Shown here: piece after piece, positions 237 to 52,513 of the stretch | Numbering within the stretch: position 1 is the first letter of the stretch | How the letters are laid out: the number at the start of each line of letters is the position of its first letter | Source: a virus | Taxonomy: Duplodnaviria > Caudoviricetes | IMG/VR virus record: IMGVR_UViG_3300031565_000048 | Span: 1-52,513 of that record | DNA: 52,513 nucleotides | Strand: one strand, 5' to 3' | Notes under the pieces: generated by a model | Database searches by the model: none | Seen by the model: only the letters and a program-made list of their open reading frames with translations | Told to the model about the DNA's origin: nothing | Position numbers and translations under genes: made by a program

Positions 237-478
237 TGTGTTCGTTCTCCTTTAGAGTTGACGGATTTGATCACGCTCGCAGCCAACTCTTTGAACTCTT
301 TAAGATAATATTGGGCTGATCTTCGGTGGATCCCAAACTTTTCGGCGATTTCAAGGCTGGTGGGGGTGTTTTCAGCTATATAGAGCATGATTAGTCCCCA
401 CTGTTCATGATGTAGATCATTCTTCCATATTTCATGGATTTTACCGCAGTTAGTACAAAAAAAATATTGGGGGTTCAT
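233..478 (-). CDS. Small Zn-ribbon/HTH protein
   Basis: CxxC followed by HTH-like EIAEKFGIHRRSAQYYL. Confidence 0.65.
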   Translation of the reverse strand: MNPQYFFCTNCGKIHEIWKNDLHHEQWGLIMLYIAENTPTSLEIAEKFGIHRRSAQYYLKEFKELAASVIKSVNSKGERTQ

Positions 479-482
479 AGTA

Positions 483-827
483 TCACCAGATTGGCTTCTC
501 TGTGTAGCTCTTGTCTTTGTCGTGGCGATGGTTACGGAATGCTTCTATGAGTTCGTTTTGTCTAGCGATTATGCGTATTAGTTCCTCTCGTAAATCGGTG
601 TTTAAAGCAGTTACAAGGTTTCCAGATAGGCGATATATTAAGACGTTCTCTGCCTTATTGACTGGCTTCCAGTCTACTTTTTCGCCTTCCTTCGCCAGTT
701 GTGCCTTGTCGATTATCTCAAGAAGTTCTATGCTGGTCTTGTTTTCGTATTCTTCGTCTAGGCTCTCATGGTCGTATATTTTTAGCAGCACTTCGTTTCT
801 AGGCGGTTCTACTTTTTTCATGTTCAT
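483..827 (-). CDS. Hypothetical protein
   Basis: 114-aa ORF coupled to its neighbours. Confidence 0.65.
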   Translation of the reverse strand: MNMKKVEPPRNEVLLKIYDHESLDEEYENKTSIELLEIIDKAQLAKEGEKVDWKPVNKAENVLIYRLSGNLVTALNTDLREELIRIIARQNELIEAFRNHRHDKDKSYTEKPIW

Positions 828-1336
828 GTTTTTTCCTCTTTTTCCCTTCCGCTTGAGGCGGGGACGGGTTGTGTGTCTGCTTCTCCAGTGTCGGGATGCT
901 CCGCAGACTCGCTTCTTAAAACACTGGTTTTCCTAAGTTGCTGGGATGCTATGGACATCATGACTGTCATGGCCTCATCGAGTTCACCGTCTTCTATCAA
1001 TTCGATTGCCTCAGTTGGGTAATACTGAAAAAGGTAGGCCCACCGTTCTATCCAGCCTGGGTGCATTTTCTCGTAAAGTTCCTCATATTCGTGTGAAGAG
1101 TAGCCGCCCTCAGCCTCCGCCTCATCTGGTAGTATCATCCACCATTGAGGCCGCCCTATCTTTACCTCTAGGCGTTTAGCGGTTATCAAGATTCTACCGT
1201 TTGGGATGCCCTTGCAGGTTCGGCATGGCTGAACCGCGTAGAGCTTACCTACCTCGTATCTGTCTGAGATCCGCCGCGTCTGTGTCTTGGTTCCCGCCTT
1301 GATCTGCTCTATGTGGTCGCCCTCTGAGAAGATTAT
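824..1336 (-). CDS. ASCH-domain protein, probable ATA start
   Basis: The frame is open upstream of TTG 1189 to ATA 1336 and adds the ASCH motif IKAGTKTQTRR. The C-terminal part has EAEAEGG. AGGAGG lies 8 nt upstream. Confidence 0.7.
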   Translation of the reverse strand: MIFSEGDHIEQIKAGTKTQTRRISDRYEVGKLYAVQPCRTCKGIPNGRILITAKRLEVKIGRPQWWMILPDEAEAEGGYSSHEYEELYEKMHPGWIERWAYLFQYYPTEAIELIEDGELDEAMTVMMSIASQQLRKTSVLRSESAEHPDTGEADTQPVPASSGREKEEKT

Positions 1337-1965
1337 TCGGTGTCCCTCCTGAGTTCAGCGTATTCGATGGGCTGAATGTTTTTGTTGAAGAATGCCCTTA
1401 TGCAGCCTTTGTGGTCTGATTGGTTTTCCCAATACTCGTAACAATCAACGCAGAGTTCAAGGTAGTCGCCATGTTCTTCGCAGCATTGAGGGTGATCTGG
1501 GGCTTGTATCTCATCGGCCCATGTTATTGGGTCGCCGCAGATGGCACAATTTGAGTCTGTGTAAACTTCCTCTGGATCTGGCTCCCATAGGAACTCGCCG
1601 CCGTATTTTTCTCTTTGTTCGAATAGGGTTAATTTGATGGAGGGAAGATACCAGGCTTTACCTATCAAGACTAGGAGAGGCAGCATTGCATATTCTAGGC
1701 GTTTCCACTTCCTACGCTTTTTCTCTCGATTATGATAGGTTTTCCACTTCTGTTCGTTGTCGTATTGGCATTCATCACAGCCATACCCGGTTTTGAAGAA
1801 ACTCGGTGAACCACATACAGGGCAGTGGAAGGTTCCCCAATCTCTCTGTCCCTTGATGGGAATGGGAAGCCAAGACCAGAACTTGATCATCGGGGCAGGG
1901 ATATGACCGTGAGGGGTTCTCACAAGGTCATAATAATTCGCGTTTTTAGGCTGTGCAAACTTCAT
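1333..1965 (-). CDS. Cys-rich (multiple CxxC) hypothetical protein
   Basis: Probable start MKFAQP at 1965 (TAATG overlap). Several CxxC pairs. Confidence 0.65.
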   Translation of the reverse strand: MKFAQPKNANYYDLVRTPHGHIPAPMIKFWSWLPIPIKGQRDWGTFHCPVCGSPSFFKTGYGCDECQYDNEQKWKTYHNREKKRRKWKRLEYAMLPLLVLIGKAWYLPSIKLTLFEQREKYGGEFLWEPDPEEVYTDSNCAICGDPITWADEIQAPDHPQCCEEHGDYLELCVDCYEYWENQSDHKGCIRAFFNKNIQPIEYAELRRDTE

Positions 1966-2678
1966 TATTCGGGCCTCCTTAGTTCGGCGCAGCAAATGGA
2001 CTCTACGTTTTCTTTTAGAATGTACTCGAACCATGTTTTATCCAGCCAATTTGTTAATTGACAGATTTTTTCATCTGTGGGTCTTGTGGTGTGGCTTGTG
2101 TAGTTCTCTAGACCTATTTCTATGGCCTCTGGCTGTATCGACATGATCCATGAAGCAAGTTCCCCAAAGTCGAAGTCTGAAAGTGGCTCCAAACTGAGAA
2201 AAGTTTTGAATCCGTTTAGCTTCATCTGTGAGAGACAATAGGCTCTTTCATGTGTACTTGGGGCCTTTGTCCAAGGGGTTAATCTATTTGTCTCAATGGT
2301 GGTACCTAGAATCACCTTTTCCTTCACTGCATCTAGGTCAAGATCTTTATCAAGGAAGCGACGGGGGTTCTTGGATTGTAGTAGGAACTTGTTGTTTGAA
2401 TTGTCTCTAAGTATGGTTAGTATTAGTTGGTATAGCCAAGAGTCGGGTACTTCATCACAGAACACATCACCCATGCTTCCGACGAATATCCAGGATTCAT
2501 CGTTTGGCATTGGGTCTTCTAGGAATTTTTCTCGGAACTGTGGGTGAAACTCTTTTCCCCATCTCTCAGTGAGTGCCCTAGCCCAGCAGTATTTACAATC
2601 GTGAGTGCAGCCCCATATTGGGTTCCATGTCCAGCCCACGGACTTGAACATGCGTCCTTTAGCTTTATTGAGTGTCAT
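1965..2678 (-). CDS. Phage Gp37/Gp68 (DUF5131)-like radical-SAM protein
   Basis: TWNPIWGCxxxCxYCWA, FVGSMGD and FLSLEPL motifs. Confidence 0.85.
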   Translation of the reverse strand: MTLNKAKGRMFKSVGWTWNPIWGCTHDCKYCWARALTERWGKEFHPQFREKFLEDPMPNDESWIFVGSMGDVFCDEVPDSWLYQLILTILRDNSNNKFLLQSKNPRRFLDKDLDLDAVKEKVILGTTIETNRLTPWTKAPSTHERAYCLSQMKLNGFKTFLSLEPLSDFDFGELASWIMSIQPEAIEIGLENYTSHTTRPTDEKICQLTNWLDKTWFEYILKENVESICCAELRRPE

Positions 2679-2830
2679 GTCCTATCGCCACCGTTCTTAA
2701 TGGATTCCTCTGACGTATGAGCCTCTGGGTGTATGCATTCTTTAGCGATGCAAAGAACACCCCATTTTAGTTCTCTCAATGCCCAGCAGTTTACCTTCTT
2801 ACAATCTTCGATTTTCACTGTCCTTGACAT
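2675..2830 (-). CDS. Small Cys-containing cassette protein
   Basis: Probable start MSRTVK at 2830, just after the upstream stop. Confidence 0.55.
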   Translation of the reverse strand: MSRTVKIEDCKKVNCWALRELKWGVLCIAKECIHPEAHTSEESIKNGGDRT

Positions 2831-2834: not shown

Positions 2835-3029
2835 TCACGTCCTCTTTTCTTGATTCTTAATGGATTTACGTTTCTCCAAGTAACCATTAACTAGCTTAAC
2901 GAGTTTTTCTTGAAATTCCTCATCATGTTCTCTACAAAGAAGGACGCCTGGTTGTCTTAGTCGTTTTACCCCGAACATAGTTATTGTATTATATGCTGGG
3001 TTGTCACAAAAGTCACAGGTAGCCACCAT
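2835..3029 (-). CDS. Small Zn-binding cassette protein
   Basis: CxxC...CxxH, TAATG coupling. Confidence 0.6.
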   Translation of the reverse strand: MVATCDFCDNPAYNTITMFGVKRLRQPGVLLCREHDEEFQEKLVKLVNGYLEKRKSIKNQEKRT

Positions 3030-3202
3030 TATGTCCTTACCCCCGTGTATCTAATGGATTTGTCAACATGTCTTTCCATCCAACAGGCTCGGCAGACCCA
3101 CTTTATCAGAGGACGATCCTCATCTAACTGGTTAGGGCAACTCGGCACATAGTCGAGTGGATCTCCGCAGTAATAGCAGACTTTAGGTATATCTTCATCC
3201 AA
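3029..3202 (-). CDS. Small Zn-finger cassette protein (57 aa)
   Basis: TTG start after GGAGG. Reads MDEDIPKVCYYCGD...VCRACW...KSIRYTGVRT*. Below the ORF track cutoff. Confidence 0.6.
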   Translation of the reverse strand: MDEDIPKVCYYCGDPLDYVPSCPNQLDEDRPLIKWVCRACWMERHVDKSIRYTGVRT

Positions 3203-3515: not shown

Positions 3516-3552
3516 TGTTCTCCATCCGTCCTCTTGGCGTTGGGGTTAATGG

Positions 3553-3771
3553 TCATTCTGGATCGTACTCCCTACCTTCGAGGATGCATTCAAGTTCGTA
3601 TCGCTTCTCGATGAAGGTTTCAGGGCTCATTGAGTAACCTAGACCATTTAACCAGATCTTGACCTTCTGGATTATTCCTTCTAAGTTCTTAATGTATTCA
3701 TGAATCTCTGTCTTGACGAGGTTTCCTTCCTCGTCGCAGACTAGATCCAGTATCGAAAAGGGTTTTTTCAT
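3553..3771 (-). CDS. Hypothetical cassette protein
   Basis: 72-aa ORF between the sites at 3529 and 3785. Confidence 0.6.
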   Translation of the reverse strand: MKKPFSILDLVCDEEGNLVKTEIHEYIKNLEGIIQKVKIWLNGLGYSMSPETFIEKRYELECILEGREYDPE

Positions 3772-4187
3772 TGTGTTTCCTCCGTCCTCTTGGCATGGGT
3801 AACAATGGATAATTCGGTGATTTTCTGGTTGTAATCTGCCATTATTTTTCGTTCCAGAAAATTCAACTCTGAGGAACTTCGTGTTAATTCTGGTGTAGTG
3901 TTTGGGTATAGTTTTTCAAATTGTTGTCTTTCCTTATTTTTCTCGATAAGTTCATCTAGGGCCGCTTGATATTTTTTGATCTGGTATTTCGGGTCTAAGA
4001 TCTGTGATTTCTGTTCTTTTGAGGCAAACCCGCATGGCTCATATACATCTATGCTAAACATGGCTGGGTTCAAGTATGTGCTCTCTATTTTTCCGCACCT
4101 TCGACAGATGCGGCGATCACAATCAAATGTACCGAACTCATCATAGTAGAACCAGGCGTGGAAGCCTAGCAAACAACGTAGGTTCAT
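3768..4187 (-). CDS. Hypothetical cassette protein with DUF1660-like N-terminus
   Basis: N-terminal CxxxxH...RICRRCG. Flanked by sites with an identical core. Confidence 0.6.
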   Translation of the reverse strand: MNLRCLLGFHAWFYYDEFGTFDCDRRICRRCGKIESTYLNPAMFSIDVYEPCGFASKEQKSQILDPKYQIKKYQAALDELIEKNKERQQFEKLYPNTTPELTRSSSELNFLERKIMADYNQKITELSIVTHAKRTEETQ

Positions 4188-4375
4188 TCTGTTGTCCTCC
4201 TTTCATGGGTGTTAATGGATTGACGTTTTTTCCACTCAATTTCAATGGGGCATTTTGGTTTTCGGATGCAGTTTAAACAATTATGGTAATCATCGCAGGG
4301 GAGATGTGGTTTCCCTAATTCTATCCATAGTTTTTCCTTTAGTAGATCTTCCTTAAAGCGGGATATTTTTTCCAT
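4184..4375 (-). CDS. Small Cys-rich cassette protein
   Basis: 63-aa ORF. Confidence 0.6.
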   Translation of the reverse strand: MEKISRFKEDLLKEKLWIELGKPHLPCDDYHNCLNCIRKPKCPIEIEWKKRQSINTHERRTTE

Positions 4376-4379
4376 CTTC

Positions 4380-4583
4380 TCATGTCCTCCTTTCAGATGT
4401 GTTTTGGGTCGTGGTGAAGATGCTCACCAGGATATGATAGTCGCCCTTTTCGGTGGGTAGCGGTGTGCTTACGCTACAGCCGGGGGCAAACTCGTTTCTG
4501 ATGCGGTCCCCGATTATCTGTAGTGTTTGGGGGTCGTCACCGTAGAACTTGCCTTTCACTTTTTCCTTCATTTTCGTTTTCAT
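4380..4583 (-). CDS. Hypothetical protein
   Basis: 67-aa ORF ending in the site at 4385. Confidence 0.55.
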   Translation of the reverse strand: MKTKMKEKVKGKFYGDDPQTLQIIGDRIRNEFAPGCSVSTPLPTEKGDYHILVSIFTTTQNTSERRT

Positions 4584-4634: not shown

Positions 4635-4841
4635 TCACCACCTCGAATGGATCTCGCCCCATGTGGAGGGCTCCTCAGGGATCAGGACGCTCGCCTTAGT
4701 GGTCTCGACTCCGCCGCCTATCCCGCTGCAGTCGTTGAAGGCCCTGCAACCCATGCAGTTGGAGGCCATGTACTTCTCGCCCAGCTCGTACATCTCGCCG
4801 ATACAGGAGGGGTATTTCTGGTTAGCCGTCTTCGTCACCAC
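4635..4841 (-). CDS. Small Cys-rich protein, first gene behind the array promoter
   Basis: GTG start about 22 nt downstream of a TATA box. Confidence 0.55.
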   Translation of the reverse strand: MVTKTANQKYPSCIGEMYELGEKYMASNCMGCRAFNDCSGIGGGVETTKASVLIPEEPSTWGEIHSRW

Positions 4842-4872
4842 AGTGAAGTACGGGTAATAAATATATAAAACT
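4831..4872 (-). promoter_or_regulatory. Archaeal TATA promoter with TTACCCGTAC box, heading the cassette array
   Basis: Minus strand reads AGTTTTATATATTTATTACCCGTACTTCACTGTGGTGACGAA. Related copies at 13766-13803 and 15130-15167. Confidence 0.7.
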
Positions 4873-5837: not shown

Positions 5838-6718
5838 TGTACCGCCTCCTGTGCTATTCTCTGTGCTTCTGATAATGGGATCTCACCACATTTTTGGCAT
5901 CTTAGGATAGCCTCAGCTTCTCCGCCGCAGATGGGGCATACCAAATCCTTTGATGAGGCTAGTATGACGCTTAGTGATCGCCATGCCTTAAGTAGCCGTG
6001 ACTTGTCTCTCATCGCAGGCGAAGCTTTGAAGGTTTCACGCTCTTCCTCGGTTTCCTTGGCCCGCTCTCTTACCTCTCTCTTCGCGGTCCTCTCGATGGT
6101 TGGCTTATGGTAGCCCTGCCGATCCACTACAGTTACTCGTTTGGGTGACAGTACCTCAGGTGCTTTCTCGATTGCCTTCACGATGAAGTCAGGGTCTTTC
6201 AATGCTTTCTCTAGGACCTCGGTTTCATGGCGTTCAACATAGTCTGAGCCAAGTGCGGTTTCAATCCGCTGAGAAGCGGGAATCGTAGGTTTCTTTTTTT
6301 GCGCAAGTGATTCTTTTTCTGGTTGTTTAAACTCGTAGACAAGGTACTTGTTTACAGTCTGTTGTGTTAACGCTGTTACTTCCACAAGCTTCTCGACTAT
6401 TTCGTTTTTGAAAGGAAAACTACCTTTGATCTTTAGTCCTTGTTTTTGGTAGATTTTTGCCAGCCCGTTAATCCATTTTTCCTTTTCCGTTCTTGGAATC
6501 TCTCGTCTATGCCAGTTCGATATAGCCCTAGCCAACAACAGCTTCTCCTCAGAGTCGATGTGTTCAAGCGTCTCAGTCTTCCAGTCAGGATTATCCTCCA
6601 ACCTGTGAAAACCGTCAATCACCTGACCATCCTTAGCCACAAGAACCGGGTATAACTCACCCACGATCTTGGTAGACTCCTTACGATTGTATTCGCTCAT
6701 TTTTCCTCCTCTCCTCAT
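5834..6718 (-). CDS. ParB/Srx-like N-terminal domain protein with HTH and C-terminal Zn ribbon
   Basis: PVLV...VIDGFHRL, an HTH-like segment, and CPIC...CQKC. Likely start MSEYNR. Confidence 0.75.
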   Translation of the reverse strand: MRRGGKMSEYNRKESTKIVGELYPVLVAKDGQVIDGFHRLEDNPDWKTETLEHIDSEEKLLLARAISNWHRREIPRTEKEKWINGLAKIYQKQGLKIKGSFPFKNEIVEKLVEVTALTQQTVNKYLVYEFKQPEKESLAQKKKPTIPASQRIETALGSDYVERHETEVLEKALKDPDFIVKAIEKAPEVLSPKRVTVVDRQGYHKPTIERTAKREVRERAKETEEERETFKASPAMRDKSRLLKAWRSLSVILASSKDLVCPICGGEAEAILRCQKCGEIPLSEAQRIAQEAVQ

Positions 6719-23644: not shown

Positions 23645-24362
23645 TTATCTTCTACTCCTACGGCTCTGAATGATACGCCTATTACGCTCCGCAAGGCCTT
23701 CCTCAAGGAACGCATATTGCTCAGGATCCACCCGTCGAAGCTCCCCGAGCTCGCGGAGAGTCATACCGGTGACGCTGCATAGCTCCATATAGAACTGGCC
23801 GACATTACTCCTTGCGAAAGGATGTGGCTTCCCCCACCTTTTCCAGGGTCCCGTAGACGCTTCTCAGCACCATCGCGACGACGACGTCGTCGCCGACGTC
23901 ACCTGATCTCAGGTACTCGTCCAGCCCCGGCGTCACACATATCTCCGCGGCAAGCTCCTTCAGTCCTTTGATGGCTTCATCGTATTTAGAAAGATCCTCC
24001 CGACCCTGCCCAAGCATCTGGTTCATCCTCAACGCGTCGCTGCGTTCACTGCTCGTCATCAGCCGGGTCTCAACGGCGAAGTCACCGAGGTCATCCCTGA
24101 ACACCGTCTTGAACACCGTCTTCTCGGTTCGCCGCATCAACCGGTCGCGGATGGATAGTTGCGCCGCTGTGTCGGCGGACTCTTCATTCTCCTCCGTATC
24201 CACGGCGCCCTCAAGCCTCGCCTCCCGCTCAATGTTTTCCTCTGCACGCGTCTTCTTCTTAGGGGCCTCTGGTTTCTCCTTTTCCTTTGGCTGGGTTTTC
24301 ATTGTCTTAAGCTTACGCTTAAGCTGTTCCTCTGATAGATCTAGGTCACCTATTTCATTCAT
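23645..24362 (-). CDS. Tail assembly chaperone. Short form 23805-24362; long form via +1 frameshift ends at 23645
   Basis: TCC TTT CGC at 23822-23814. The +1 frame is open to TAA at 23645. Confidence 0.7.
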
Positions 24363-24380
24363 CTCTATGTTTCCTCCACT

Positions 24381-25079
24381 CTAGTTATCTCTAATTCGTC
24401 CTTTTTGATACTCTTTATTTTCATGCCTTTTTATCCAGTTGCAGTTTGCACATAATAACTGGTATTTATGTTTGCATTCTGGGTTTTTAATAATGTTTTT
24501 CATTACGTGGTAATTTCCACCTTTTTTGAGTTCCTTTTTTCCACCACCACATACGTGATCTATTTGTAAAACTCGATGATCGGTAATACCACATCTTTGA
24601 CATTCGCCGCCTAGAATTTTTAAGATCTCTAAACGCATCTCTTTGCGACGATTCCTTGATTTTTTATTATCCGTTTCTTTATTCATTTGGTGTCGCTTCT
24701 TTGCGTAAAGTAAATTTCTATCTCTATTTTTCTGATAACGATCTCTTGACTCTTGAAGAAGTCTAGGTTCGTTTTCTTCGCGGTGTTGTTTTTGATAATT
24801 CTTTATTTTATCTCTATTCTCTAAATAATATTCCTTTGCCTTGCTTAGTCTTTTGACCTTGTTTTTCTGGCAGTATTCTTTCTTTTGTTTTAATATTTTG
24901 TTTCTATTTTCTAAATAATATTGTTTTTGTAGCTTTTGTCGATGCGTCTTTTCTGATTCTGTGTATGCCCAATAACGACAAACTGCACTCTGTCTATCCC
25001 GTATATTATAAGCCTCTTCTAGTACACTGAACATCGGTCTTTCAATTAGTTTTTGAATGAACTCGCTATTATATTCCAT
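24381..25079 (-). CDS. HNH endonuclease (homing-type)
   Basis: CQRC...LQIDHV...LLCANCN with a basic repeated N-terminus. AT-rich. Confidence 0.85.
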   Translation of the reverse strand: MEYNSEFIQKLIERPMFSVLEEAYNIRDRQSAVCRYWAYTESEKTHRQKLQKQYYLENRNKILKQKKEYCQKNKVKRLSKAKEYYLENRDKIKNYQKQHREENEPRLLQESRDRYQKNRDRNLLYAKKRHQMNKETDNKKSRNRRKEMRLEILKILGGECQRCGITDHRVLQIDHVCGGGKKELKKGGNYHVMKNIIKNPECKHKYQLLCANCNWIKRHENKEYQKGRIRDN

Positions 25080-25350
25080 CTTTATTCTCCTTATTTTTCC
25101 GCCATAAAAGATATTCGTCGTACTGCTCTACTTTGACGATTCGAAGATGGGTGGTCGAAAAGGTCTTGTACACTACCCTGAACTCCGGGATCATGCTCAG
25201 ATGCTTCTTAAGCCGCTGGTAGTCGATCCAGTTCATAGATATGACGAAGGCGGCGGTCCCTGCGAACAGGGCGTCCTCCTCAGTCATCTCCTCCTTCAAC
25301 TCGTCAAACGTGTATCTTCGGATACCTTCTCCGATTCTTACTTTCTCCAT
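25069..25350 (-). CDS. Hypothetical protein
   Basis: 93-aa ORF in the tail module. Confidence 0.6.
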   Translation of the reverse strand: MEKVRIGEGIRRYTFDELKEEMTEEDALFAGTAAFVISMNWIDYQRLKKHLSMIPEFRVVYKTFSTTHLRIVKVEQYDEYLLWRKNKENKDGI

Positions 25351-25366
25351 AGTCTCAACTCCAAAC

Positions 25367-26128
25367 TTAACTAATATGGTTTACCTGGAACGTTATTTCA
25401 TCTACACATCTTTGAACATTATCTTTAATTTCGTGCTCCCAGAAACGAAGAACCTGCCACCCATTCGCTCTAAGAGCCTTGTCCTGCCTTCTATCCTTCT
25501 CGACCATCTCAGGCAAGTTATGCCAGTAATCACCATCGCATTGAATAATGATCTTTCTCTCTGGAAAAACTATGTCAGGCTGGCACACCCCGCAAACCGG
25601 AAGATGCTTCTCGTAAATAATTCCTCGTTGGGTTAATTCGTTTTGCATAGCGACTTCAATAGAAGTATCCTTTTGGGGAAAAACCTGTTTTAGTCTAGCT
25701 TCTCGAATTTTATTTTTATGTTCTTCTGAAAATGTTTTTTCATAATAGCGGTGCATGTTTCCCTTTTTAAATCTACCCGAATGAGTTATTTTCTTTTGAG
25801 CATCCGACATTCTTCGTTTTGTATCTTCAGAAGCCTTGCGGTCCTTATTATGTTTGTTTCCCTTCGAGGATGTACTTATTTTTCTTCTATGATCCTCTGA
25901 GTATATTCCTTTTTGCCCTTTATTCCATGTAATAATACCTTTTAAAACCCTGCTAATTTTTTGTTTGTGTTCTTTAGATAGTGTTTTTCCTTTATGGGCA
26001 TTACTTATTTTTATTTTATGTTCTTCGGATAGTTTCTTATCCAGCCAATAACGTGTAGGGTTTTTCAGGTGACTCTCGGACATTTTTCTCTTGGTTTCTT
26101 CAGAGTGTTTAAACCCTTGTTTATACAT
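25367..26128 (-). CDS. NUMOD3-repeat / DUF559(Vsr)-like endonuclease
   Basis: Repeated SEE(T/H)KxK(M/I)S. C-terminal PDIVF...DGDYWH...GWQVLRFWE. Confidence 0.85.
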   Translation of the reverse strand: MYKQGFKHSEETKRKMSESHLKNPTRYWLDKKLSEEHKIKISNAHKGKTLSKEHKQKISRVLKGIITWNKGQKGIYSEDHRRKISTSSKGNKHNKDRKASEDTKRRMSDAQKKITHSGRFKKGNMHRYYEKTFSEEHKNKIREARLKQVFPQKDTSIEVAMQNELTQRGIIYEKHLPVCGVCQPDIVFPERKIIIQCDGDYWHNLPEMVEKDRRQDKALRANGWQVLRFWEHEIKDNVQRCVDEITFQVNHIS

Positions 26129-45752: not shown

Positions 45753-46125
45753 CCCCCTCCACCTCTATCTTTTGTTGAAGTTCCCCACTAACTTTCTGGA
45801 TGACGTTCTTGGGTAGAAGACCATCGATCATCTTCCCTCTATAGAGCAACTGGAGGTGGGGGGTTACGCCCCCGCTCTCTATTTGATTAATCTGTCTTTT
45901 TATGAGTTGGTCTACGAGAGATCCTCTTCTCTCTTGAAGTTTCTCGACGTACTTGAAGGCGTAGGGGTGCTTCATGTCTCTCCTGACAGTGACCTCTGAT
46001 ACGCCGATCTCTGCCGCTATGTCGGCGTAGGTCCAGATGCCTCTGCCCATGGCCTCGAACTCTTTCTCTATTCGGACTCGTTTCTTCGCAGTTATCCGTG
46101 TCTCTTTTTGGTCAGAGTCGGTCAT
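45604..46125 (-). CDS. Probable terminase small subunit (HTH)
   Basis: YADIAAEIGVSEVTVRRD. Directly upstream of terL. Confidence 0.7.
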   Translation of the reverse strand: MTDSDQKETRITAKKRVRIEKEFEAMGRGIWTYADIAAEIGVSEVTVRRDMKHPYAFKYVEKLQERRGSLVDQLIKRQINQIESGGVTPHLQLLYRGKMIDGLLPKNVIQKVSGELQQKIEVEGVELKGLDEDAVGAIVQNFMDDEARRLRQPEPDAIPGAKERPEDGVDPTG

Positions 46126-46151
46126 TTCCGATCATTTCTCCGTTCTACAGG

Positions 46152-46409
46152 TTACTCGGTTGGGACGGCCTGTTGCGATCCCCGGCCGCGCGCATCGGAT
46201 AGGATCTCGCCTTTCGTGAACATGTCTTTATGCTTGAGGAGATCGTTGATCCTTTGTCGGGGCAGTTTCTCTATGAGATGGAAGAGTACTTGTCCCGGCG
46301 TGAGGACGTTAATAGCCTCCGCTTTCTCGTAGTCGCGGTGGGAGTGGGTGCTGACGATGCGTGCTGCGGTTCGCCGTATATGGGCGTCTCGACTTCTTTT
46401 ATGAGGCAT
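46152..46409 (-). CDS. Hypothetical protein
   Basis: 85-aa ORF. Confidence 0.5.
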   Translation of the reverse strand: MPHKRSRDAHIRRTAARIVSTHSHRDYEKAEAINVLTPGQVLFHLIEKLPRQRINDLLKHKDMFTKGEILSDARGRGSQQAVPTE

Positions 46410-46460
46410 TGATACTCAACTCTAGGAGCCACACTCGCGCGGTGTCGGAGGCGGCTAAAC

Positions 46461-46781
46461 TTATTCGTTGACATCGCGGATTATAACGGGACCGTAGCCG
46501 TAGTCTTCATTATTTGTGAGTTGGTTGATGGCCCCACTGAGGCGGTGGCCTGCGACATCTACGCCTGCTCCTGTTAAAAGGGCTACGAGGTATATCCAGA
46601 TGTCTGGGTTTTCAATGTCTCGGAATATTAAAGCTGCAAGGAAACCGCCTAGTATTGCTCTTCCTATACTAGCCGCGAATTTCCTGAAGTCGAAGGGTTC
46701 TCCAGATTCTATCCAGCCAAGGACGGCCACGAAAAGGGCACCGAGGACGGTTAGCAGGATTAGGGTGATATGTGTATTCAT
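46461..46781 (-). CDS. Holin-like protein with three TM helices
   Basis: Three hydrophobic helices. Appears leaderless behind TTTATAT at about 46807-46813. Confidence 0.6.
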   Translation of the reverse strand: MNTHITLILLTVLGALFVAVLGWIESGEPFDFRKFAASIGRAILGGFLAALIFRDIENPDIWIYLVALLTGAGVDVAGHRLSGAINQLTNNEDYGYGPVIIRDVNE

Positions 46782-46839
46782 TATATTGAATTAGTTATCA
46801 TCAGCATATAAATAAGGTGTTGTGGTTTCAGCGCATCGC

Positions 46840-46965
46840 CTATCTCTCGATCACAGCGATGACTTTCTCTAGGCGATCAATGAGGCCGTCTATCGTTTTC
46901 TCGTGTTCCGTTAGGCAGTTTATGAGGAGATCAAGGACATCCATACGCTGGGTTAGGTTGCCCAT
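46840..46965 (-). CDS. Small coiled-coil protein (41 aa)
   Basis: MDVLDLLINCLTEHEKTIDGLIDRLE. Confidence 0.5.
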   Translation of the reverse strand: MGNLTQRMDVLDLLINCLTEHEKTIDGLIDRLEKVIAVIER

Positions 46966-47076
46966 TTTGTTCCTTTTAGTCCTCACAGTTCTCGGTAAAA
47001 TGGTTTGTGAAGTCAGGATATGGTTTAAAGATCTATGAATGGGTTGAGTGGGGAGAATCCTTCAACCTGTACCTAC

Positions 47077-47313
47077 TTAGGACTCCTCTTCCTCGTTTGC
47101 TTTATGGACCCCGTGGCCCTCCCTAATCTGGTATGCCTTCACCGCCCTGTAGAGGTACATCCAGCCACACCCACAGTTATCACACCCCTGAACCCTGTCT
47201 GGGTGAAGCCTCCAGGGGCAGGCATCACATGGCGGCTCTACGGGTATCTTGAGAAGCTGGGCGTAGATTCTCAGCTTCTCCTTTGCTTTGGTGGGCCTGT
47301 GTCTTTCACTCAT
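47077..47313 (-). CDS. Small Cys-rich cassette protein
   Basis: CDAC...CDNC. Confidence 0.55.
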   Translation of the reverse strand: MSERHRPTKAKEKLRIYAQLLKIPVEPPCDACPWRLHPDRVQGCDNCGCGWMYLYRAVKAYQIREGHGVHKANEEEES

Positions 47314-47497
47314 CCTTATGCTCCTCCGGATAATGGATTTTAAACTTAGCTAAAGGATAAAGTGGAGTAGCCCACTGACAATCTGGGCATCTCCAAAATA
47401 TCTTTGAATATGTCAATCCATCAAGTAATTCATCAAGAACATCATTCCCACATCTGGGGCAAACATGAGGTTTAGTTATAACCGTTCTTTTACTCAC
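47306..47497 (-). CDS. Zn-ribbon cassette protein
   Basis: CPRC...CPDC. Flanked by sites sharing the core CGGAGGA. Confidence 0.6.
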   Translation of the reverse strand: MSKRTVITKPHVCPRCGNDVLDELLDGLTYSKIFWRCPDCQWATPLYPLAKFKIHYPEEHKDE

Positions 47498-47687
47498 CCT
47501 TTGACTCCTCCGTTAATAGGATGCGGAGAACTTCTCGCCCCAGCCGTGTCGCATGGAAATAATGCGTAACGTGCCCACATTTGCAACTCCAATGTTTTAA
47601 TGCACCACACCCACATTCTTCGCTAGTGCAATAGATTCCGGAACCGTTGTCTGACCCACATTTCTCGCATTTACCCATCCTTGGCAT
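47490..47687 (-). CDS. Cys-rich cassette protein
   Basis: Multiple Cys pairs. Confidence 0.55.
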   Translation of the reverse strand: MPRMGKCEKCGSDNGSGIYCTSEECGCGALKHWSCKCGHVTHYFHATRLGREVLRILLTEESKGE

Positions 47688-47810
47688 CCTCCGCTTTTAG
47701 GATTGATGAGCCGCATGTAATACATTCAACATGAATTTTTCTTGATGCCTTTCCACGGTAAACGTGAAAACATTTACCTCCACACTCTGCGCAGATTAGT
47801 TTTATTTTGT

Positions 47811-48050
47811 TCATTCCTCTTGCTCTCCCTCTTTATGGTCAATTAATTTAGCATCAAGAACCCATATCTCATCTGAGTCATTATCAATGCGTTCTAAGGC
47901 CCAATCTGCTGAAGCCTCGTAATCAGATGCTTCTAAAAACTTTTTATCGCATGATGGACATTTCGGGCAACCCATTTCATCTAATTTAAGAGTAGAATTA
48001 CAGATGTGGCAACGGGCTCTCAGTGATTCAAGATGTTCTCTTATGGACAT
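47811..48050 (-). CDS. Zn-finger cassette protein
   Basis: CHIC...CPSC. Probable start MSIRE. Confidence 0.55.
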   Translation of the reverse strand: MSIREHLESLRARCHICNSTLKLDEMGCPKCPSCDKKFLEASDYEASADWALERIDNDSDEIWVLDAKLIDHKEGEQEE

Positions 48051-48183
48051 CCTAAACGCCCTCCTCTTTACGGATTTCCTCTGAACGATCATAAAGATAA
48101 ATCAACCAAGGATGTTTTATCAAGTAAGCCAAAGCGTGCCAATAAAGCACCCACTCAGGTATTTTCTTAGTTCTTGACAAATC

Positions 48184-48408
48184 CTAAGCACCTCCGTGTT
48201 TTAGGTCGTTTTCTAATGGGTAATCATCTGGCATGAATGGCATTCTCCCATATCTTTCAGGACTGTGTTTATTATGAACTTCTCTTATATGATCGGCAGT
48301 TTTTTTCAATAGTTTATCAAAATCGGTTTGCCGGATATTATCTTTAAATCCCCAAGTGTGCCAATCACAAAACGGGCATTCCATCCTTCTAACTCTTACT
48401 TTTTTCAT
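48184..48408 (-). CDS. C2H2-like Zn-finger cassette protein
   Basis: CPFC...HIREVH. Confidence 0.6.
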   Translation of the reverse strand: MKKVRVRRMECPFCDWHTWGFKDNIRQTDFDKLLKKTADHIREVHNKHSPERYGRMPFMPDDYPLENDLKHGGA

Positions 48409-48409
48409 C

Positions 48410-48622
48410 CTAAGCACCCTCATATTTACGGATAAGATTCTGAGGATCGGAAAACTTCAAGTTATAATTAGCCTCAAATACCCGAACCATGTCAATTAAC
48501 TGTCTAAGTTTCCGTTGATGTTTACTTGGAGGATTACGTATTGCCACATCTTCAAGTGGCTTCATCTTCCAGAACTCTTCAAGGAAGGTTTCTACAAGTT
48601 TCTTTAATTCAGTTTCACTCAT
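48410..48622 (-). CDS. Hypothetical cassette protein
   Basis: 70-aa ORF between two sites. Confidence 0.6.
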   Translation of the reverse strand: MSETELKKLVETFLEEFWKMKPLEDVAIRNPPSKHQRKLRQLIDMVRVFEANYNLKFSDPQNLIRKYEGA

Positions 48623-49233
48623 GTCTCTATCCTCTTTGATTTGCTATTAGTGGATTTGAAGAAATCCAATAACTCTGTTTGTGGCCATGGCCCTTGTTTT
48701 TGGATCATTAGAAGCCAGTATGATTGTTTGGCTGTTTTACCAGCATATCCTACGGGGATTCTTAGGGCAACATCCCAGAGAGGGAGATATTCAAGAACCT
48801 CGTTTGTGCTTAGGCTGTTTTCACTCCACTTAAAGAATAGAATCCCGCCAGGTATTAGGACTCGTGCGATTTCCCTTTGGGTTTCGTAGATGAATCGCAT
48901 TAACTCGGTTTTTGTTTGGTACTTATCTGCTCCATAATAGACCGGCGGTGCTTCTCTGCTATGAGAGGGCCATTTCTTGTTCCATGTTTCTCGGTTTGGT
49001 GTGGTGAAGAGGCTGCTATTTTTTCTTTTGCCCCATTCATGTGGTGGATCAAACACAGCGAAGAACTTGGAATCTGGGGGGAGATCGGTATTAGTGGCAT
49101 CGCAGAGAAGGTCAGGGGGCAATGAGAGATCGGGTTCTTTATCTAAGAAGAGTATGTGTGGGCTATCTTTAAGGGTCCAGATACTACGGTTCCCGGCCGT
49201 GAAGTCAACTATTGTAGCATCTGGTTTCTCCAT
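48619..49233 (-). CDS. Small amino-type DNA methyltransferase
   Basis: DFTAGNR SAM motif, FDPPH catalytic motif, and RVLIPGGILFFKW. Confidence 0.8.
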   Translation of the reverse strand: MEKPDATIVDFTAGNRSIWTLKDSPHILFLDKEPDLSLPPDLLCDATNTDLPPDSKFFAVFDPPHEWGKRKNSSLFTTPNRETWNKKWPSHSREAPPVYYGADKYQTKTELMRFIYETQREIARVLIPGGILFFKWSENSLSTNEVLEYLPLWDVALRIPVGYAGKTAKQSYWLLMIQKQGPWPQTELLDFFKSTNSKSKRIET

Positions 49234-49235
49234 TT

Positions 49236-49439
49236 TTATGTCCTCTTTGTTTGCTTTCTTCTGGATTCAATTATCTTGGCATGTTGTTTACAATATTCAC
49301 CGTTAGGACCATACCCTCTTTTCCTTTTACATTGATAGAAATGCCAGCCAGTTTCATCTACCACCTCAGCAATACACCGAGTAGAATCTTCAGGAATACC
49401 TTGGGGCCTTATATTCGATTGATCATACACTCTATCCAT
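49236..49439 (-). CDS. Small Zn-binding cassette protein
   Basis: C...QCKRK...YCKQH. Confidence 0.6.
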   Translation of the reverse strand: MDRVYDQSNIRPQGIPEDSTRCIAEVVDETGWHFYQCKRKRGYGPNGEYCKQHAKIIESRRKQTKRT

Positions 49440-49484
49440 TTTTCTATGTCCTCTTTTTGGTTTCGACTTGGGTCATTTCATTTT

Positions 49485-49739
49485 TCACCTTGAAAGTAAA
49501 TACCTCATAAGTACATCGATGTTCGGCGAAGTCTTTTTGGCTCTTCTCTTCTTTATTCTCTCTATGATTTCGTTATGAATCTGTTTTTCCTGACAGTCAG
49601 GCTTCCCATGATTCGGGCATTTCTTCCATTCAGGGCAGACCACCAAGTTATTGGCGTTTATCTTGATATGAACTGCCCTGCGTTTGCCCTCAACCGTGCA
49701 GAGAACCACGCCTTCTTGGTAGCTGTGCTTACTCATCAT
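49485..49739 (-). CDS. Hypothetical cassette protein
   Basis: 84-aa ORF. Confidence 0.55.
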   Translation of the reverse strand: MMSKHSYQEGVVLCTVEGKRRAVHIKINANNLVVCPEWKKCPNHGKPDCQEKQIHNEIIERIKKRRAKKTSPNIDVLMRYLLSR

Positions 49740-50179
49740 TCTACCTCCATCCGTTTAGTGTGTTTGATAATGGATGTATCAAGAATTAATGGTTCTAAGT
49801 TAGCGAGTTGAGTTAATATCTCATTAGCGTAAATATGGGAAACATGATTCTGAGGCCAAGTAATAGCTTTATCATCAATGTATGCAGTAGCGAATACCTT
49901 TCCATCCATCTGGGTGGCGATTTTATCAAAGGGCATATTATAATGTTCAAGGTATTCCTTTATTGCTACCTTGATTTTCTTGTAGTCGTGATTCTCCCAT
50001 TGCCCATTAGTTCTACATGTGAATATTACTATTTCATAGCCAAGTTTCTTTATTCCTTCAAGCAAATACCTTACGCTTTCATTAGGCTCCCCGAATTTAT
50101 ATGGATCATAGTGTCCATCATAATGACATATTACTCCATCAAAGTCTACTGCAATATGTCTAACTTTAATCCCCATCAT
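49736..50179 (-). CDS. HAD-superfamily phosphatase
   Basis: DFDGVI, IFTCR and YIDDKA. Confidence 0.85.
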   Translation of the reverse strand: MMGIKVRHIAVDFDGVICHYDGHYDPYKFGEPNESVRYLLEGIKKLGYEIVIFTCRTNGQWENHDYKKIKVAIKEYLEHYNMPFDKIATQMDGKVFATAYIDDKAITWPQNHVSHIYANEILTQLANLEPLILDTSIIKHTKRMEVE

Positions 50180-50210
50180 TCCACCGTCCTCTTAGTATCT
50201 GAGTTACTGG

Positions 50211-50387
50211 TCATTCTTCTTTGAACTCCATCTTAATTTTATAGTGTGTTTGGTGTCTCTCCTCTCTTATCTCATCTAAGACTTCAACAAGTTCTGGTAA
50301 TGTTTCATAGGGCTGGGAGCCGTGACGCTGATATATTCCATCAATTAGAATGTTTAACACGGTTTTTGCTTCTTCTTTAAGACTCAT
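50211..50387 (-). CDS. Small hypothetical cassette protein (58 aa)
   Basis: MSLKEEAKTVL...MEFKEE*. Lies between the sites at 50187 and 50398. Confidence 0.55.
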   Translation of the reverse strand: MSLKEEAKTVLNILIDGIYQRHGSQPYETLPELVEVLDEIREERHQTHYKIKMEFKEE

Positions 50388-50665
50388 TTTTCCACTCTCC
50401 TAAGTTCTTTAGAGATAATGGAGCCGTTTCTCTTTGTGATCTCAACACCACAGTAAAACAATGTCTCGCCTTCTTGCATGGTGTCAAGGATTTTAGCTGT
50501 TCCAGCGGCTCTAATTAAGCTGCTTCCTCTTGAATGTTTATTCACAAGTTCCTTTGTTGTCGCCACTCGTTTACCGTATAGAAAGTCGGGGTAATTGTTC
50601 TGTAGAAGCCTCCAATGTTCCTTGAAGGCTAAATCAAATAGAAGGTCATCTGATATGGGCGTCAT
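50384..50665 (-). CDS. Hypothetical cassette protein
   Basis: 93-aa ORF. Confidence 0.55.
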   Translation of the reverse strand: MTPISDDLLFDLAFKEHWRLLQNNYPDFLYGKRVATTKELVNKHSRGSSLIRAAGTAKILDTMQEGETLFYCGVEITKRNGSIISKELRRVEK

Positions 50666-50754
50666 TTTGTTTAGTATCGGCCATACTTGATCAAAGTTTT
50701 CTACGGCTCGGTCAAGCCATTGAATGCCGCTTATTGAGTCTGAGGAAAAAAGGC

Positions 50755-51108
50755 TCAGTTGGGGTCATCCTCCTGCCATGCAGAATAGACTTTCTGCCAA
50801 TCTGAGCCGTAGATTCGTTTGAAGTCGTCGATTGTTGGTTGTCTGCGTTCTATTTCTTTCCATCCATGATCATCTTTTAGCCAGTGGCGTTCTAACTTGA
50901 TTGACTTATTCGCTTCTTTAAGAACATAAAGCGGGTCAGCCTTCTCAAGTAGTTTCTTCAGTTTCTCTTGGTCCTCTTCGCATGGTGTGAACCATTCACC
51001 GAATGGACCTAGATAGAAGCGTATGGTGTCTGTCTCTGTAGTTACTGATTTGACGTATTCGCCTGTTTCGTCGTCTATGGTCTCCAAATTGTATTCGCGT
51101 GTTTTCAT
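50755..51108 (-). CDS. Hypothetical cassette protein
   Basis: Probable start MKTREY (ATGA overlap). Confidence 0.6.
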   Translation of the reverse strand: MKTREYNLETIDDETGEYVKSVTTETDTIRFYLGPFGEWFTPCEEDQEKLKKLLEKADPLYVLKEANKSIKLERHWLKDDHGWKEIERRQPTIDDFKRIYGSDWQKVYSAWQEDDPN

Positions 51109-51326
51109 TTTTCCATCTCCTTGGACCGTAATTGCTGGGAGTAAATGGATTCTTTTGAGTAGCTGATCAATATGACGGGTGGTTCGGTATTTTCTGTGAC
51201 GCAGCATTTCTTATACATGCCCTTAATATTAGGGTCATAGGTGCAAGCCCCAGATGCGATGTCAACACCACATCTTTGAGCCGTTTTACATTTCTCTGGA
51301 TATTTAGGGCATGGAAGCTTAGGCAT
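51105..51326 (-). CDS. Cys-rich cassette protein
   Basis: 73 aa. Confidence 0.55.
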   Translation of the reverse strand: MPKLPCPKYPEKCKTAQRCGVDIASGACTYDPNIKGMYKKCCVTENTEPPVILISYSKESIYSQQLRSKEMEK

Positions 51327-51504
51327 CGGTCCTTTCTCCTTTAGATTCTCTGGTCCCGAGTTGCTGGGAGCTAATGGATGGGTTCACTTTGCTTTCTATT
51401 TCCCCAGTATCTCTGTAGTATCCGTACCAGAAAACGATGCAATTATCACAATCATGGTTTTTTGTGCATTCAAGTTCAGTAAATTTACATTTCAGTGGGG
51501 GCAT
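51319..51504 (-). CDS. Cys-rich cassette protein
   Basis: 61 aa. The C-terminus reads through two tandem sites. Confidence 0.55.
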   Translation of the reverse strand: MPPLKCKFTELECTKNHDCDNCIVFWYGYYRDTGEIESKVNPSISSQQLGTRESKGERTDA

Positions 51505-51845
51505 TACCCAAGTTCCTCCGTTACGTTTGTGATGTGAGTTTCTAGTTGGTTTGAATCGTAGAGATAAACGATCTTGGTGACATCGGCTACTAATCGAGGG
51601 TACTTGGTGTATCCTACGACAAACACGGCTTTATCGTGTTTCAGTTGATTGCCTTGAAATACTATGTTTCTTCCTTTGTAGAATTGACCAAGTAATCTAG
51701 ATCTCTTCTCGATAAGTCGATTCCACCAGTGATCTGAAGCATCACGATATTCAACTGTCTTTTTACCTGATTTGATGGCTTCATATAGATCGCCATACTT
51801 CTCAAACCCTTCTAAATATCTTTTCAAGACAAAATGTGCTGGCAT
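51504..51845 (-). CDS. ASCH-domain protein
   Basis: YEAIKSGKKTVEYR motif. Confidence 0.75.
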   Translation of the reverse strand: MPAHFVLKRYLEGFEKYGDLYEAIKSGKKTVEYRDASDHWWNRLIEKRSRLLGQFYKGRNIVFQGNQLKHDKAVFVVGYTKYPRLVADVTKIVYLYDSNQLETHITNVTEELG

Positions 51846-52036
51846 TAGGGCGTCCTCTTTTTGGTTTCGTCTACGGTTTCCTCTGAACTATTATTTTTAT
51901 CAAAATACCATATAGGTAAATCTTGACAATCGGTACAGTTAGACCTTGAACCCCCACCATATGGACAGCCAAGCGGATCTTCTCTAGCAGCAGGACATAG
52001 CCCCCAATCATCATCTTTTATGATAGTTCTTGACAA
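51845..52036 (-). CDS. Cys-rich cassette protein
   Basis: 63 aa. Confidence 0.55.
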   Translation of the reverse strand: MSRTIIKDDDWGLCPAAREDPLGCPYGGGSRSNCTDCQDLPIWYFDKNNSSEETVDETKKRTP

Positions 52037-52037
52037 G

Positions 52038-52178
52038 CTAAATCGACCTCTTCCTGTGTTTCTCTAAGGATGTCCTTTCAGCCATCATAATGTCCCCACA
52101 TTCAAAATCGTAATCACAGTATTTACAAAGCATTGAAGGTTGGCATTCTGGATATTTCTTACCATCAGTATCAGTCAT
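52038..52178 (-). CDS. Small Cys-rich cassette protein (46 aa)
   Basis: ATGA overlap. Lies between the sites at 52046 and 52189. Confidence 0.5.
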   Translation of the reverse strand: MTDTDGKKYPECQPSMLCKYCDYDFECGDIMMAERTSLEKHRKRSI

Positions 52179-52354
52179 TTTATTTCTATCCTCTTACTAT
52201 CTGATTTAGCGGAGTCATGTATTTCTCTAATTTTTTGATGACGTTCTTGGACAGTTCCATGCCACTTATAAGAACCCATCAATCGAGTCCGATCTTTGCC
52301 TGTTAATTCGTTTTCCCACCAACGGATTATTTTATGAATATCCATTTTACTCAT
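52175..52354 (-). CDS. Small hypothetical cassette protein (59 aa)
   Basis: Flanked by two sites with the core TCAGATA. Confidence 0.55.
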   Translation of the reverse strand: MSKMDIHKIIRWWENELTGKDRTRLMGSYKWHGTVQERHQKIREIHDSAKSDSKRIEIK

Positions 52355-52386
52355 TTTTCATCGTCCTCTTAATATCTGAATCCATT

Positions 52387-52513
52387 GATTCGTTGACTGC
52401 CTGAGTTAGATTCCAATCATATTCTGTGAAAATGTCGATTATGTTCTGGTGCCTTTGTTGCATTAACCATTTCTTGAACTGTTTTCTGCCTTCTTCTTGT
52501 CCTCTAGTTTGGT
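52387..52513. repeat. Terminal overlap, copy 2
   Basis: Exact match to 1-127. Confidence 0.95.

Follow-up and report, generated by a model that had tools for sequence, protein, structure and literature searches.

What are the short, uniformly built DNA elements that lie at the gene boundaries of a virus accessory region, and what does the repeated order of their centres mean? The question is raised by IMGVR_UViG_3300031565_000048 (Duplodnaviria; Caudoviricetes), a tailed-virus record of 52,513 bases that was analysed in full and is called the window here; it carries a 127-base terminal repeat, thus the record is circularly permuted. About 35 small genes form an array of about 10 kb on its minus strand, which covers 47077-52386 and, continuous with this part by circular permutation, 1-4662. 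The initial annotation had picked out twelve elements in this array, each split into a 7-bp core between two 9-bp arms, and had noted that the cores follow one another in coordinate order as A B C D E D E A B C C D, where A is GAAACCA, B AAACACA, C TCAGATA, D TCTAAAG and E TCCCAGC. All twelve cores were confirmed at their minus-strand places and the 9-7-9 split reads as given. Comparison with related loci leads us to propose that these 25-bp elements are probably the gene-boundary joints of the accessory array, serving both the expression of the genes and their exchange among relatives.

The build of the joint was derived from 70 non-identical sites of the window and 13 related loci, the sole criteria for choosing them being a known core and the start of a gene 8-32 nucleotides (nt) downstream. 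Position 2 is a C in 63 of the 70 sites and position 3 in 64; position 23 is a G in 61 and position 24 in 62. Since these four positions are nearly fixed in sites that had been selected without using the ends, the 25-bp frame WCC-N6-core7-N6-GGW with its 9-7-9 geometry is real. The joints are all in one orientation, on the coding strand. A strict site is located just before 24 of 37 called array genes, the calls coming from a simple Shine-Dalgarno-based heuristic that missed some genes (for instance the 81-codon open reading frame (ORF) at 236-478), and before 55 of 95 genes in the related loci. Elsewhere such sites are rare, with 2 of 43 genes in the rest of the genome, 8 of 182 in the terminase relatives L002-L017 and 4 of 65 in distant relatives; the terminase relatives lack the motif, ATCCATTA being present 0-1 times in five of their records. 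From 48408 down to 47313, in the distal array, the Shine-Dalgarno sequence coincides with the core and GGA is directly followed by the ATG; even so, the WCC-N19-GGW spacing persists. Because the frame is largely restricted to the array and persists where core and Shine-Dalgarno sequence coincide, it is not a by-product of ribosome-binding sites.

The joints carry or abut the ribosome-binding site of the next gene and lie mostly within the 3´ end of the upstream gene. Among 79 strict sites before gene starts, 63 are wholly inside the upstream ORF, 6 partly, and 10 are in non-coding DNA; the frame is 0 in 56 cases, 1 in 13 and 2 in 4. Recurrent protein tails are thus a consequence of the site, since the sites span all frames and non-coding DNA, and a conserved C-terminal peptide (..S-I.....K-R..) was rejected as the underlying element for the same reason. 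An RNA hairpin, or sequestration of the Shine-Dalgarno sequence, was also considered and rejected: pairing from arm to arm is at the level of shuffled sequences except at positions 5 and 21 (0.34 versus 0.24). Promoters and terminators are not enriched in 46000-52513, with 17 against 12.0 +/- 3.6 in shuffled sequence and 8 against 7.1 +/- 2.6, respectively.

Within the window, positions 10-16 hold an identical 7-mer in 9 of the 66 site pairs, and no pair shares a 7-mer in the 16 windows starting at -19 to -4, in windows 4-8 or in windows 22-29. A second sharing peak, with 10 pairs at window 19, is the Shine-Dalgarno part. A peak of identity at positions 10-16 had been predicted in the initial annotation, and this stood for the sharing of whole 7-mers but not for the per-position identity over all pairs, which is 0.20-0.70 in the core and highest at the ends (1.00 and 0.83 at positions 2-3; 1.00, 0.83 and 0.70 at positions 23-25). 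How far identity extends beyond the core depends on the class. The two A sites are identical over 18 nt, including 9/9 of the right arm, identity continues past the core in the C pairs (right arm 8/9) and the E pair is identical over about 11 nt, while in the B pair, and in D1 compared with D2 and D3, identity is confined to the 7-mer.

Read in the order of transcription, the twelve sites give D C C B A E D E D C B A. In a post hoc permutation test, at least four repeated neighbour pairs occurred in 1.1% of 200,000 permutations, and a collapsed repeat of at least four in 1.3%. The genes enclosed by the two A-D series had been described as different, and this was borne out: an all-against-all BLASTP of 34 small proteins detected no homology between the two sets of cargo (best E value 0.009, with no slot-matched pair among the matches listed at E<1). 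The double series is not a gene duplication. In one of the related loci, L024, the gene families f06 and f07 are adjacent, and their homologues in the window (483-827 and 50382-50751) are separated by about 2.1 kb that contain D C C B A, one further gene, E/D and E. Judged from this comparison, A B C D E D E A B C C D is one canonical series plus part of a second array haplotype that was joined to it out of register; such a join of two haplotypes would leave the cargo of the two series unrelated.

The related loci were reached through the 147-amino-acid (aa) HAD-like gene at 49736..50179, called the marker in the following. Close relatives of it were found in the protein collection, and their alignment, run against metagenome contigs, picked up 13 loci in which the marker is 70-96% identical; in DNA the identity is 77-93%. 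The marker genes of L023 and L024 were missed by the gene caller and added by hand. Scans of viral contigs with the 147-aa and the 204-aa protein singly found no relative, and the alignment A1 found only relatives of 32-36% in the same collection. The 7-mers of the window also precede genes in the related loci, and they do so in the same order. The series runs ACATCTG, ACCCATG (core G), CCCAACG, TACACGG, AATCAAG, AACGGTG (core J), TGCGCCG (core H), E, D, C, B, A, AAGCAAA (core F1), AGCAAAT (core F2), ATGAGGG (core I) and further cores. All 9 cores that the window shares with L024 are collinear (permutation p = 5e-5), as are 8 of 8 shared with L023 (1e-4), 6 of 6 with L018 (p = 0.01) and 6 of 6 with L028 (0.01); the shorter loci point the same way without reaching significance (4/4 collinear in L025 and in L019, 4/5 in L026). 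In addition, the core classes are discrete: 54 of 79 cores equal one of 11 classes, and 1 of the 79 is one mismatch off.

The cargo between the cores changes while the order is kept. For 12 slot-matched protein pairs of the window and L024, Smith-Waterman z values ranged from -0.8 to 1.0 after removal of the site-encoded tails, hence the proteins are unrelated, while the marker is about 90% identical. DNA homology to the window ends at the boundaries of the marker, or of a few other genes, and the neighbours differ. At 15 matching joints the two flanks are 33% and 32% identical, which is the random level, and the arms 59%. Across 14 sequences, seven genes were found in the B-A slot, six in D-C, five in A-F1 and four in C-B, and one case each of D-C (apparently) and C-B is empty, some of the empty-slot cases stemming from loose site matches. 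Seven of the 10 gene families present in two or more haplotypes keep their slot, and the marker always lies between cores that are neighbours in the series. Related genomes thus keep the core order with different cargo, as the initial annotation had proposed to check, and its idea that cores define slots is supported by the kept order, the replaced cargo and the breaks of homology at the core edges described below. The comparison supports reading the cores as labels that mark the slots in order.

Around genes that two loci share, homology is bounded by the core edges, setting in at position 10 and ending at position 16/17. On the 3´ side, 25 pairs of loci have one gene in common and differ in the following gene. 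The sequences begin to differ at position 17 in 7 of these pairs, at 18 in 2, and at 15 or 9 in 4 each, the two cores being different in these last groups; in the other 8 pairs the break lies elsewhere. On the 5´ side, the first position alike is 10 in 4 of 9 pairs and 9 in 1. Many of these pairs are non-independent, and they correspond to about a dozen separate events.

Sites of recombinant type, with the left arm of one context, the right arm of another and a common core, are present as far as can be judged by comparison. Core D provides a three-way hybrid: one gene tail (TCCATTATC followed by TCTAAAG) is continued by two different right arms and genes, one at 50398 in the window and the other in L024, and the right arm and gene of L024 have a different left arm in L023. 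Further hybrid joints were found at cores B, C and F1. L026 reads f01, C, a 141-aa gene, C, marker and L020 reads f01, C, marker, a difference that would amount to the insertion or deletion of a single gene at one core. Units flanked by the same core recur, namely C-C, F1-F1, G-G, A-A and E-E. Moreover, in the window (51378-51330) and in L018 an E and a D site abut without a gene between them, and L025 and L026 hold a gene of 62-63 aa at this place. By the measure of sequence comparison, these cases show that genes which were exchanged, inserted or deleted are bounded by the joints.

The arrangement was also followed in sequencing runs by way of their contigs (Logan unitigs); six runs hold the virus. 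Contigs with 0 differing letters tile the arrangement of the window in three deep runs, for instance over 49196-51368 and 48617-50826, and these runs may represent the source samples. In runs X1, X3 and X6 the main haplotype, at a depth of 220-390, is cut into many short unitigs across the array (47000-52386), and several cuts are located at or adjoin joints at 47653-47682, 48040-48069, 48608-48646 and 51340-51368, with low-depth alternative pieces. This suggests that several array haplotypes are present in one sample. Some low-depth unitigs join distant places (e.g. 49472 to 52045 and 48654 to 49448); their shorter side measures 20-40 letters, mostly <30, so that they are unreliable and were not counted as evidence. 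Linkage between sites of the same core is absent among the unitig joints listed.

From its position, the joint would supply the ribosome-binding site to the next gene. Since it carries or abuts this site, any gene that comes to lie behind a joint would be translated, often coupled to the preceding gene. The second role, which the comparison of loci brings out, is exchange: at the joints, co-circulating relatives gain, lose and replace genes. In the loci compared, each left arm goes along with the gene upstream and each right arm with the gene downstream, and the centre remains at its place in the array; the crossover would fall inside the 7-base centre. As each position has its own centre, most exchanges would happen in register, so that cargo is renewed and the series of centres persists. 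One out-of-register join of two haplotypes with different cargo would then have produced the double series D C C B A ... D C B A.

How the crossover is brought about can be answered only in graded terms. It may well be, at somewhat less than even chances, that a protein-targeted and site-restricted process is at work. Its enzyme would not belong to the recognisable tyrosine or serine recombinases and may come from the host; it might act as a genuine site-specific recombinase, or the joint might be nicked or broken and then mended with a co-infecting genome as template. A protein-targeted process is favoured by a frame that is fixed, core classes that are discrete and breaks that are sharp at the core edges. 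Arms that are almost free in sequence, leakage between slots and the stability of same-core repeats argue against a classical recombinase. It is possible, with a lower probability, that the crossover is made by untargeted short-identity recombination and that selection keeps only those products that are joined at working boundaries. The most far-reaching version remains tentative and rather doubtful: a natural position-addressed exchange system of a tailed virus with a probably archaeal host, in which the joints, set into the final codons of each accessory gene, would be both ribosome-binding region of the next gene and target of a dedicated enzyme and only sites with the same centre would be exchanged. 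If this were true, co-infecting viruses would trade genes slot by slot without scrambling the operon.

Several observations weigh against strict addressing and a dedicated enzyme. The marker occupies the C-B slot in 7 loci, A-F1 in 2, and F1-F2 and B-A in 1 each; the methyltransferase-like gene f08 lies in F1-F2 in the window and between A and B in L018; and the order in L018 reads ...C A B A.... With one gene in four slots, another in two and this exception in the order, the addressing leaks and is not strict. In addition, the window keeps 2-3 direct copies of each of the cores A-E within 3 kb at a depth of 220-390 in three runs. The persistence of these repeats counts against an efficient core-matched recombinase, which should collapse them. 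The arms provide only thin information for a sequence-specific protein, with 0.16-0.56 bits at positions 4-9 and 17-21 and 0.99 bits at position 22, which is mostly A. No dyad symmetry was found beyond WCC/GGW: positions 4-9 against 17-22 give 1.42 of 6 matches, compared with 1.46 when the right arms are re-dealt. Moreover, the sample is narrow, because the 13 loci were all reached through the marker and are therefore centred on the slots E to F2, that is, on one array neighbourhood, the upstream part of the array being reached only by L024 and by L018, which comes from a contig of 43 kb. Three pairs of loci (L020/L021, L023/L024 and L025/L026) are near-duplicates, and the evidence for exchange is all comparative.

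The search for an enzyme adds to these points. In six frames of the complete genome, PF00589, PF16795 and PF00239 gave no match at E <= 1, so that neither a tyrosine nor a serine recombinase was found; the control search with PF00589 gave a match in 14 of 14 control genomes. ERF, RecT, Rad52 and Rad51 were likewise not found in six-frame searches at E <= 1. Two orphan genes of 276 and 294 aa at the head of the array matched nothing relevant in Pfam (E <= 1) or PHROGs; a PDB sequence search gave nothing below E = 0.088 for them, and Atlas only weak capsid-like leads. A single-sequence AlphaFold model of the 276-aa orphan was uninformative (pLDDT 31). Neither orphan was found in five joint-less records of terminase relatives, most of which are incomplete, so that this shows nothing either way. 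The 294-aa protein (5834-6718, minus strand), next to the array head, has by eye an N-terminal DGFHR motif like that of ParB-type domains and a C-terminal CxxC...CxxC zinc ribbon.

In the initial annotation the elements had been read as sites of a tyrosine recombinase that binds the 9-bp arms and swaps strands over an identical 7-bp overlap, with cassettes exchanged by double crossover as in lox/FRT systems. The 9-7-9 geometry with its fixed ends would be expected for such an enzyme, and sites that all point one way, discrete core classes, hybrid joints with a common core and arms from different contexts, and the 7 of 10 multi-haplotype gene families that keep their slot would fit it as well; a natural precedent is given by Acinetobacter dif modules, which swap singly where the 6-bp spacers match on both sides (PMC13141974). 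However, the complete genome yielded no tyrosine or serine recombinase (a host enzyme is possible), and the inverted repetition of the arms ends after 3 nt. The window stably keeps direct repeats of the same core, and more than one slot is used by two gene families, the marker alone being found in four. The claim of a tyrosine recombinase was thus not supported and we consider the full scheme unlikely. The double-crossover cassette exchange fared no better in its pure form, from which neither the genes flanked by the same core nor the abutting empty sites follow, as they are not products of a double crossover. It is improbable to a similar degree that the joints are expression signals only, that is, translation initiation and coupling elements of a long operon whose centres are under purifying selection and whose order reflects descent, while cargo changes by rare illegitimate recombination anywhere and selection keeps the products with a working boundary. 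A start codon follows every site at a distance of -2 to 22 nt, a Shine-Dalgarno sequence is part of each site or adjoins it, most genes overlap by 1, 4 or 8 nt, and no recombination enzyme was found, all of which is in line with a purely translational role. Such a role leaves unexplained why exact 7-mers, including two third-codon positions in unrelated upstream genes, are kept beside arms near background level, why one-mismatch variants of the cores are so scarce (1/79), why WCC is located exactly 9 nt before the core at any distance from the start codon, and why a relic E-type site is present in an open frame without a start codon behind it.

Two simpler explanations can be given very little weight. 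A plain segmental duplication within the genome, or chance sharing of A-rich 7-mers near ribosome-binding sites, might come to mind since D C B A occurs twice within 3 kb and the strand is A-rich, GAAACCA and AAACACA each being present 13 times on the minus strand of the genome. Such an origin is highly improbable given that the genes of the two series lack homology, that the core window has 9 identical pairs against 0-1 in flank windows, and that the same cores take the same relative position in 13 other loci. It is just as hard to believe that the arrangements are assembly chimeras, in which an assembler joined different strains at shared sites, even though the related loci are all metagenome contigs and the Logan unitigs of three deep runs break near several joints. 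The identity between contexts is only 7-19 nt, which falls below the word lengths usual for de Bruijn assemblers and is too short to mislead them. The same arrangements are moreover present in contigs of different samples (L020/L021, L023/L024 and L025/L026), the window arrangement is tiled by contigs with 0 differing letters, and a second public assembly, L035, has a contig of 52,527 bases with an MCM gene that is 100% identical.

Taken as gene-boundary joints, the elements would belong with the systems in which modules are exchanged by way of boundary sites. Among natural systems, the dif modules of Acinetobacter plasmids come nearest. For the XerC/XerD dif modules of Rep_3 plasmids, PMC13141974 reports recombination only between pdif sites with identical or near-identical spacers, and single modules replacing one another where left and right spacers match. 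Like the joints, pdif sites are short two-armed sites that separate accessory modules. They differ in having 28 bp (11-6-11) and well-conserved XerC and XerD arms, where the joints have 25 bp (9-7-9) with only WCC/GGW conserved, and in alternating in orientation (C/D modules), where the joints are all direct. The arms of the joints bear no likeness by eye to the pdif arms tabulated in PMC13141974. In contrast to pdif sites, the joints lie in the coding tails and ribosome-binding regions of a virus and their centres form a series in one order.

A second parallel is found in T4-type phages. The PeSL cassettes are about 100 bp long, consist of a sigma-70 promoter and a terminator stem-loop, share one generic sequence and act through homologous recombination, and genes flanked by two of these motifs can leave one chimeric motif behind (PMC2839356). 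They are boundary motifs between small orphan genes in hyperplastic regions, which provide expression signals to the flanking genes and mark the ends of insertions, deletions and replacements between close relatives (PMC2839356); the last of these features is found here as well. Unlike PeSL, the joints have 25 bp, no enrichment of promoters or terminators, no hairpin and a position-specific centre. Engineered heterospecific lox/FRT sites have identical arms and different spacers, and are exchanged only at matching spacers, so that the cassette keeps its place. They possess 13-bp perfect inverted arms and a known enzyme, whereas the arms of the joints are nearly free and the addressing leaks; for heterospecific lox/FRT sites, the literature search listing gave engineered uses only. 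The array resembles an integron in its promoterless small genes of one orientation after a common promoter, in the short conserved cores at the boundaries and in single cassettes that are present or absent. It differs in the lack of IntI (no PF00589 match) and of attC-type hairpins of 57-141 bp. Furthermore, integron cores are the same for all cassettes and the order is not preserved, whereas the cores here differ by position. The conserved motif before ORFs of the haloarchaeal virus HGTV-1 is generic, with a TATA-like box and an inverted repeat, and the part of its description that was available reports no slot-specific centres or order. A limited full-text literature search listed no natural system of this kind in a virus, which is no proof of absence.

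Virus genomes are mosaic, and it has long been argued whether this is due to random joins sorted by selection or to built-in linker sequences. The array is a concrete case, with about 19 ordered joints that carry 7-base labels and with several unrelated alternative genes per slot in a natural population. Should the joints be sites of active crossover, this would account for a quick turnover of accessory genes that leaves the expression of the operon intact, and the joints could yield orthogonal short sites for the ordered assembly of DNA. If they are not such sites, the exact keeping of 7-mers upstream of ribosome-binding sites amid changing surroundings needs explaining.

The joints of the window are all on the minus strand; for those of the double series the start of the core on the plus strand is given after the coordinates. 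Core A is found at 49449..49473 (49458), in the non-coding gap before the 67-aa gene 49236..49439, and at 51853..51877 (51862), before a 113-aa gene, the latter being the joint that is identical over 18 nt to that at 49449. Core B is located at 49750..49774 (49759), in the tail of the 147-aa gene and before an 84-aa gene, and at 52046..52070 (52055), before a 63-aa gene. Core C occurs three times: in non-coding DNA before the 147-aa HAD-like gene (50187..50211; 50196), before a 46-aa gene (52189..52213; 52198), and before a 59-aa gene (52364..52388; 52373), where the left end is TCA instead of WCC. Core D lies at 50398..50422 (50407), before a 58-aa gene, at 51330..51354 (51339) and at 241..265 (250), before the gene that crosses the record end, here with GAA instead of GGW at the right end. 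Core E was found at 51125..51149 (51134), before a 117-aa gene, and at 51354..51378 (51363), where it abuts the D joint of 51330; base 51354 is common to both and the E-D slot between them is empty. The stretch 50666-50751 (minus strand), upstream of the first start codon of the 93-aa ORF 50384..50665, shows homology to the N-terminal portion of a gene for 128 aa in L024; judging by its run of A near 50744-50750, the copy may be truncated or frameshifted. The 81-codon ORF at 236-478 (minus strand; ATG at 478) overlaps the stop of the gene 483..827, has the D joint of 241 in its tail and shows by eye a CxxC pair and a helix-turn-helix-like stretch.

Downstream of the double series, core F1 (49241..49265) precedes the 204-aa methyltransferase-like gene and is followed by core F2 (48630..48654) and core I (48408..48432), whose GGA abuts the ATG. 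Next come ACGGAGG, a core that is a Shine-Dalgarno sequence, at 48182..48206, AGGAGGG at 48050..48074, AGGGAGA at 47815..47839 and CGGAGGA twice, at 47678..47702 and at 47313..47337, the last in frame 1 of the upstream gene. In the upstream part of the array, ACATCTG is located at 4385..4409. Core G follows at 4195..4219, before a 139-aa gene, and again at 3785..3809, so that this gene has core G on both sides. CCCAACG (3529..3553) is non-coding; TACACGG lies at 3034..3058, AATCAAG at 2840..2864, core J at 2680..2704, before a DUF5131 gene, and core H at 1976..2000. An E-type joint, TCCATAGCA TCCCAGC AACTTAGGA, at 931..955 (minus strand) is found inside an open frame without a gene start behind it; it is also present in L024 and is probably a relic joint. 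The open frame concerned, of about 171 codons (827-1339, minus strand), starts just past the stop of the gene 1333..1965, has no ATG, GTG or TTG near its 5´ end and shows 79% DNA identity to a 163-aa gene that is intact in L024. The complete E-type joint is located 30 codons before its stop, and the frame looks like a former gene boundary that is now read through.

The long frames of the record are all on the minus strand and encode, among others, a large terminase, a tape-measure protein and an MCM-type helicase. The small genes of the array mostly overlap by 1, 4 or 8 bases, and the G+C content of the array is about 41% (41-46%), compared with mostly 48-58% in the replication and structural modules; outside the array, the G+C content dips to 40.5% at 24001-26000. 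A 350-bp gap heads the array and contains at 4861..4870 (minus strand), after AAAG, the box TTTTATATAT, which looks by eye like a promoter of the archaeal BRE/TATA type. For the terminase, the nearest named phage is Methanobacterium phage psiM2 (40.8% identity). The signals for the host conflict: the archaeal-type MCM, the psiM2-like terminase and the BRE/TATA-like box stand against the near-identical contig of 52,527 bases (L035), which is filed in a genome bin labelled Dehalococcoidia. We lean towards an archaeal host. A megablast search of 46000-52513 against phage records gave 0 matches, Rfam 0 matches and a tRNA search 0 genes. Among the structural genes, a 253-aa protein (25367-26128, minus strand) combines four NUMOD3 motifs with a nuclease domain of the Vsr/DUF559 type and resembles a free-standing endonuclease of the homing type.

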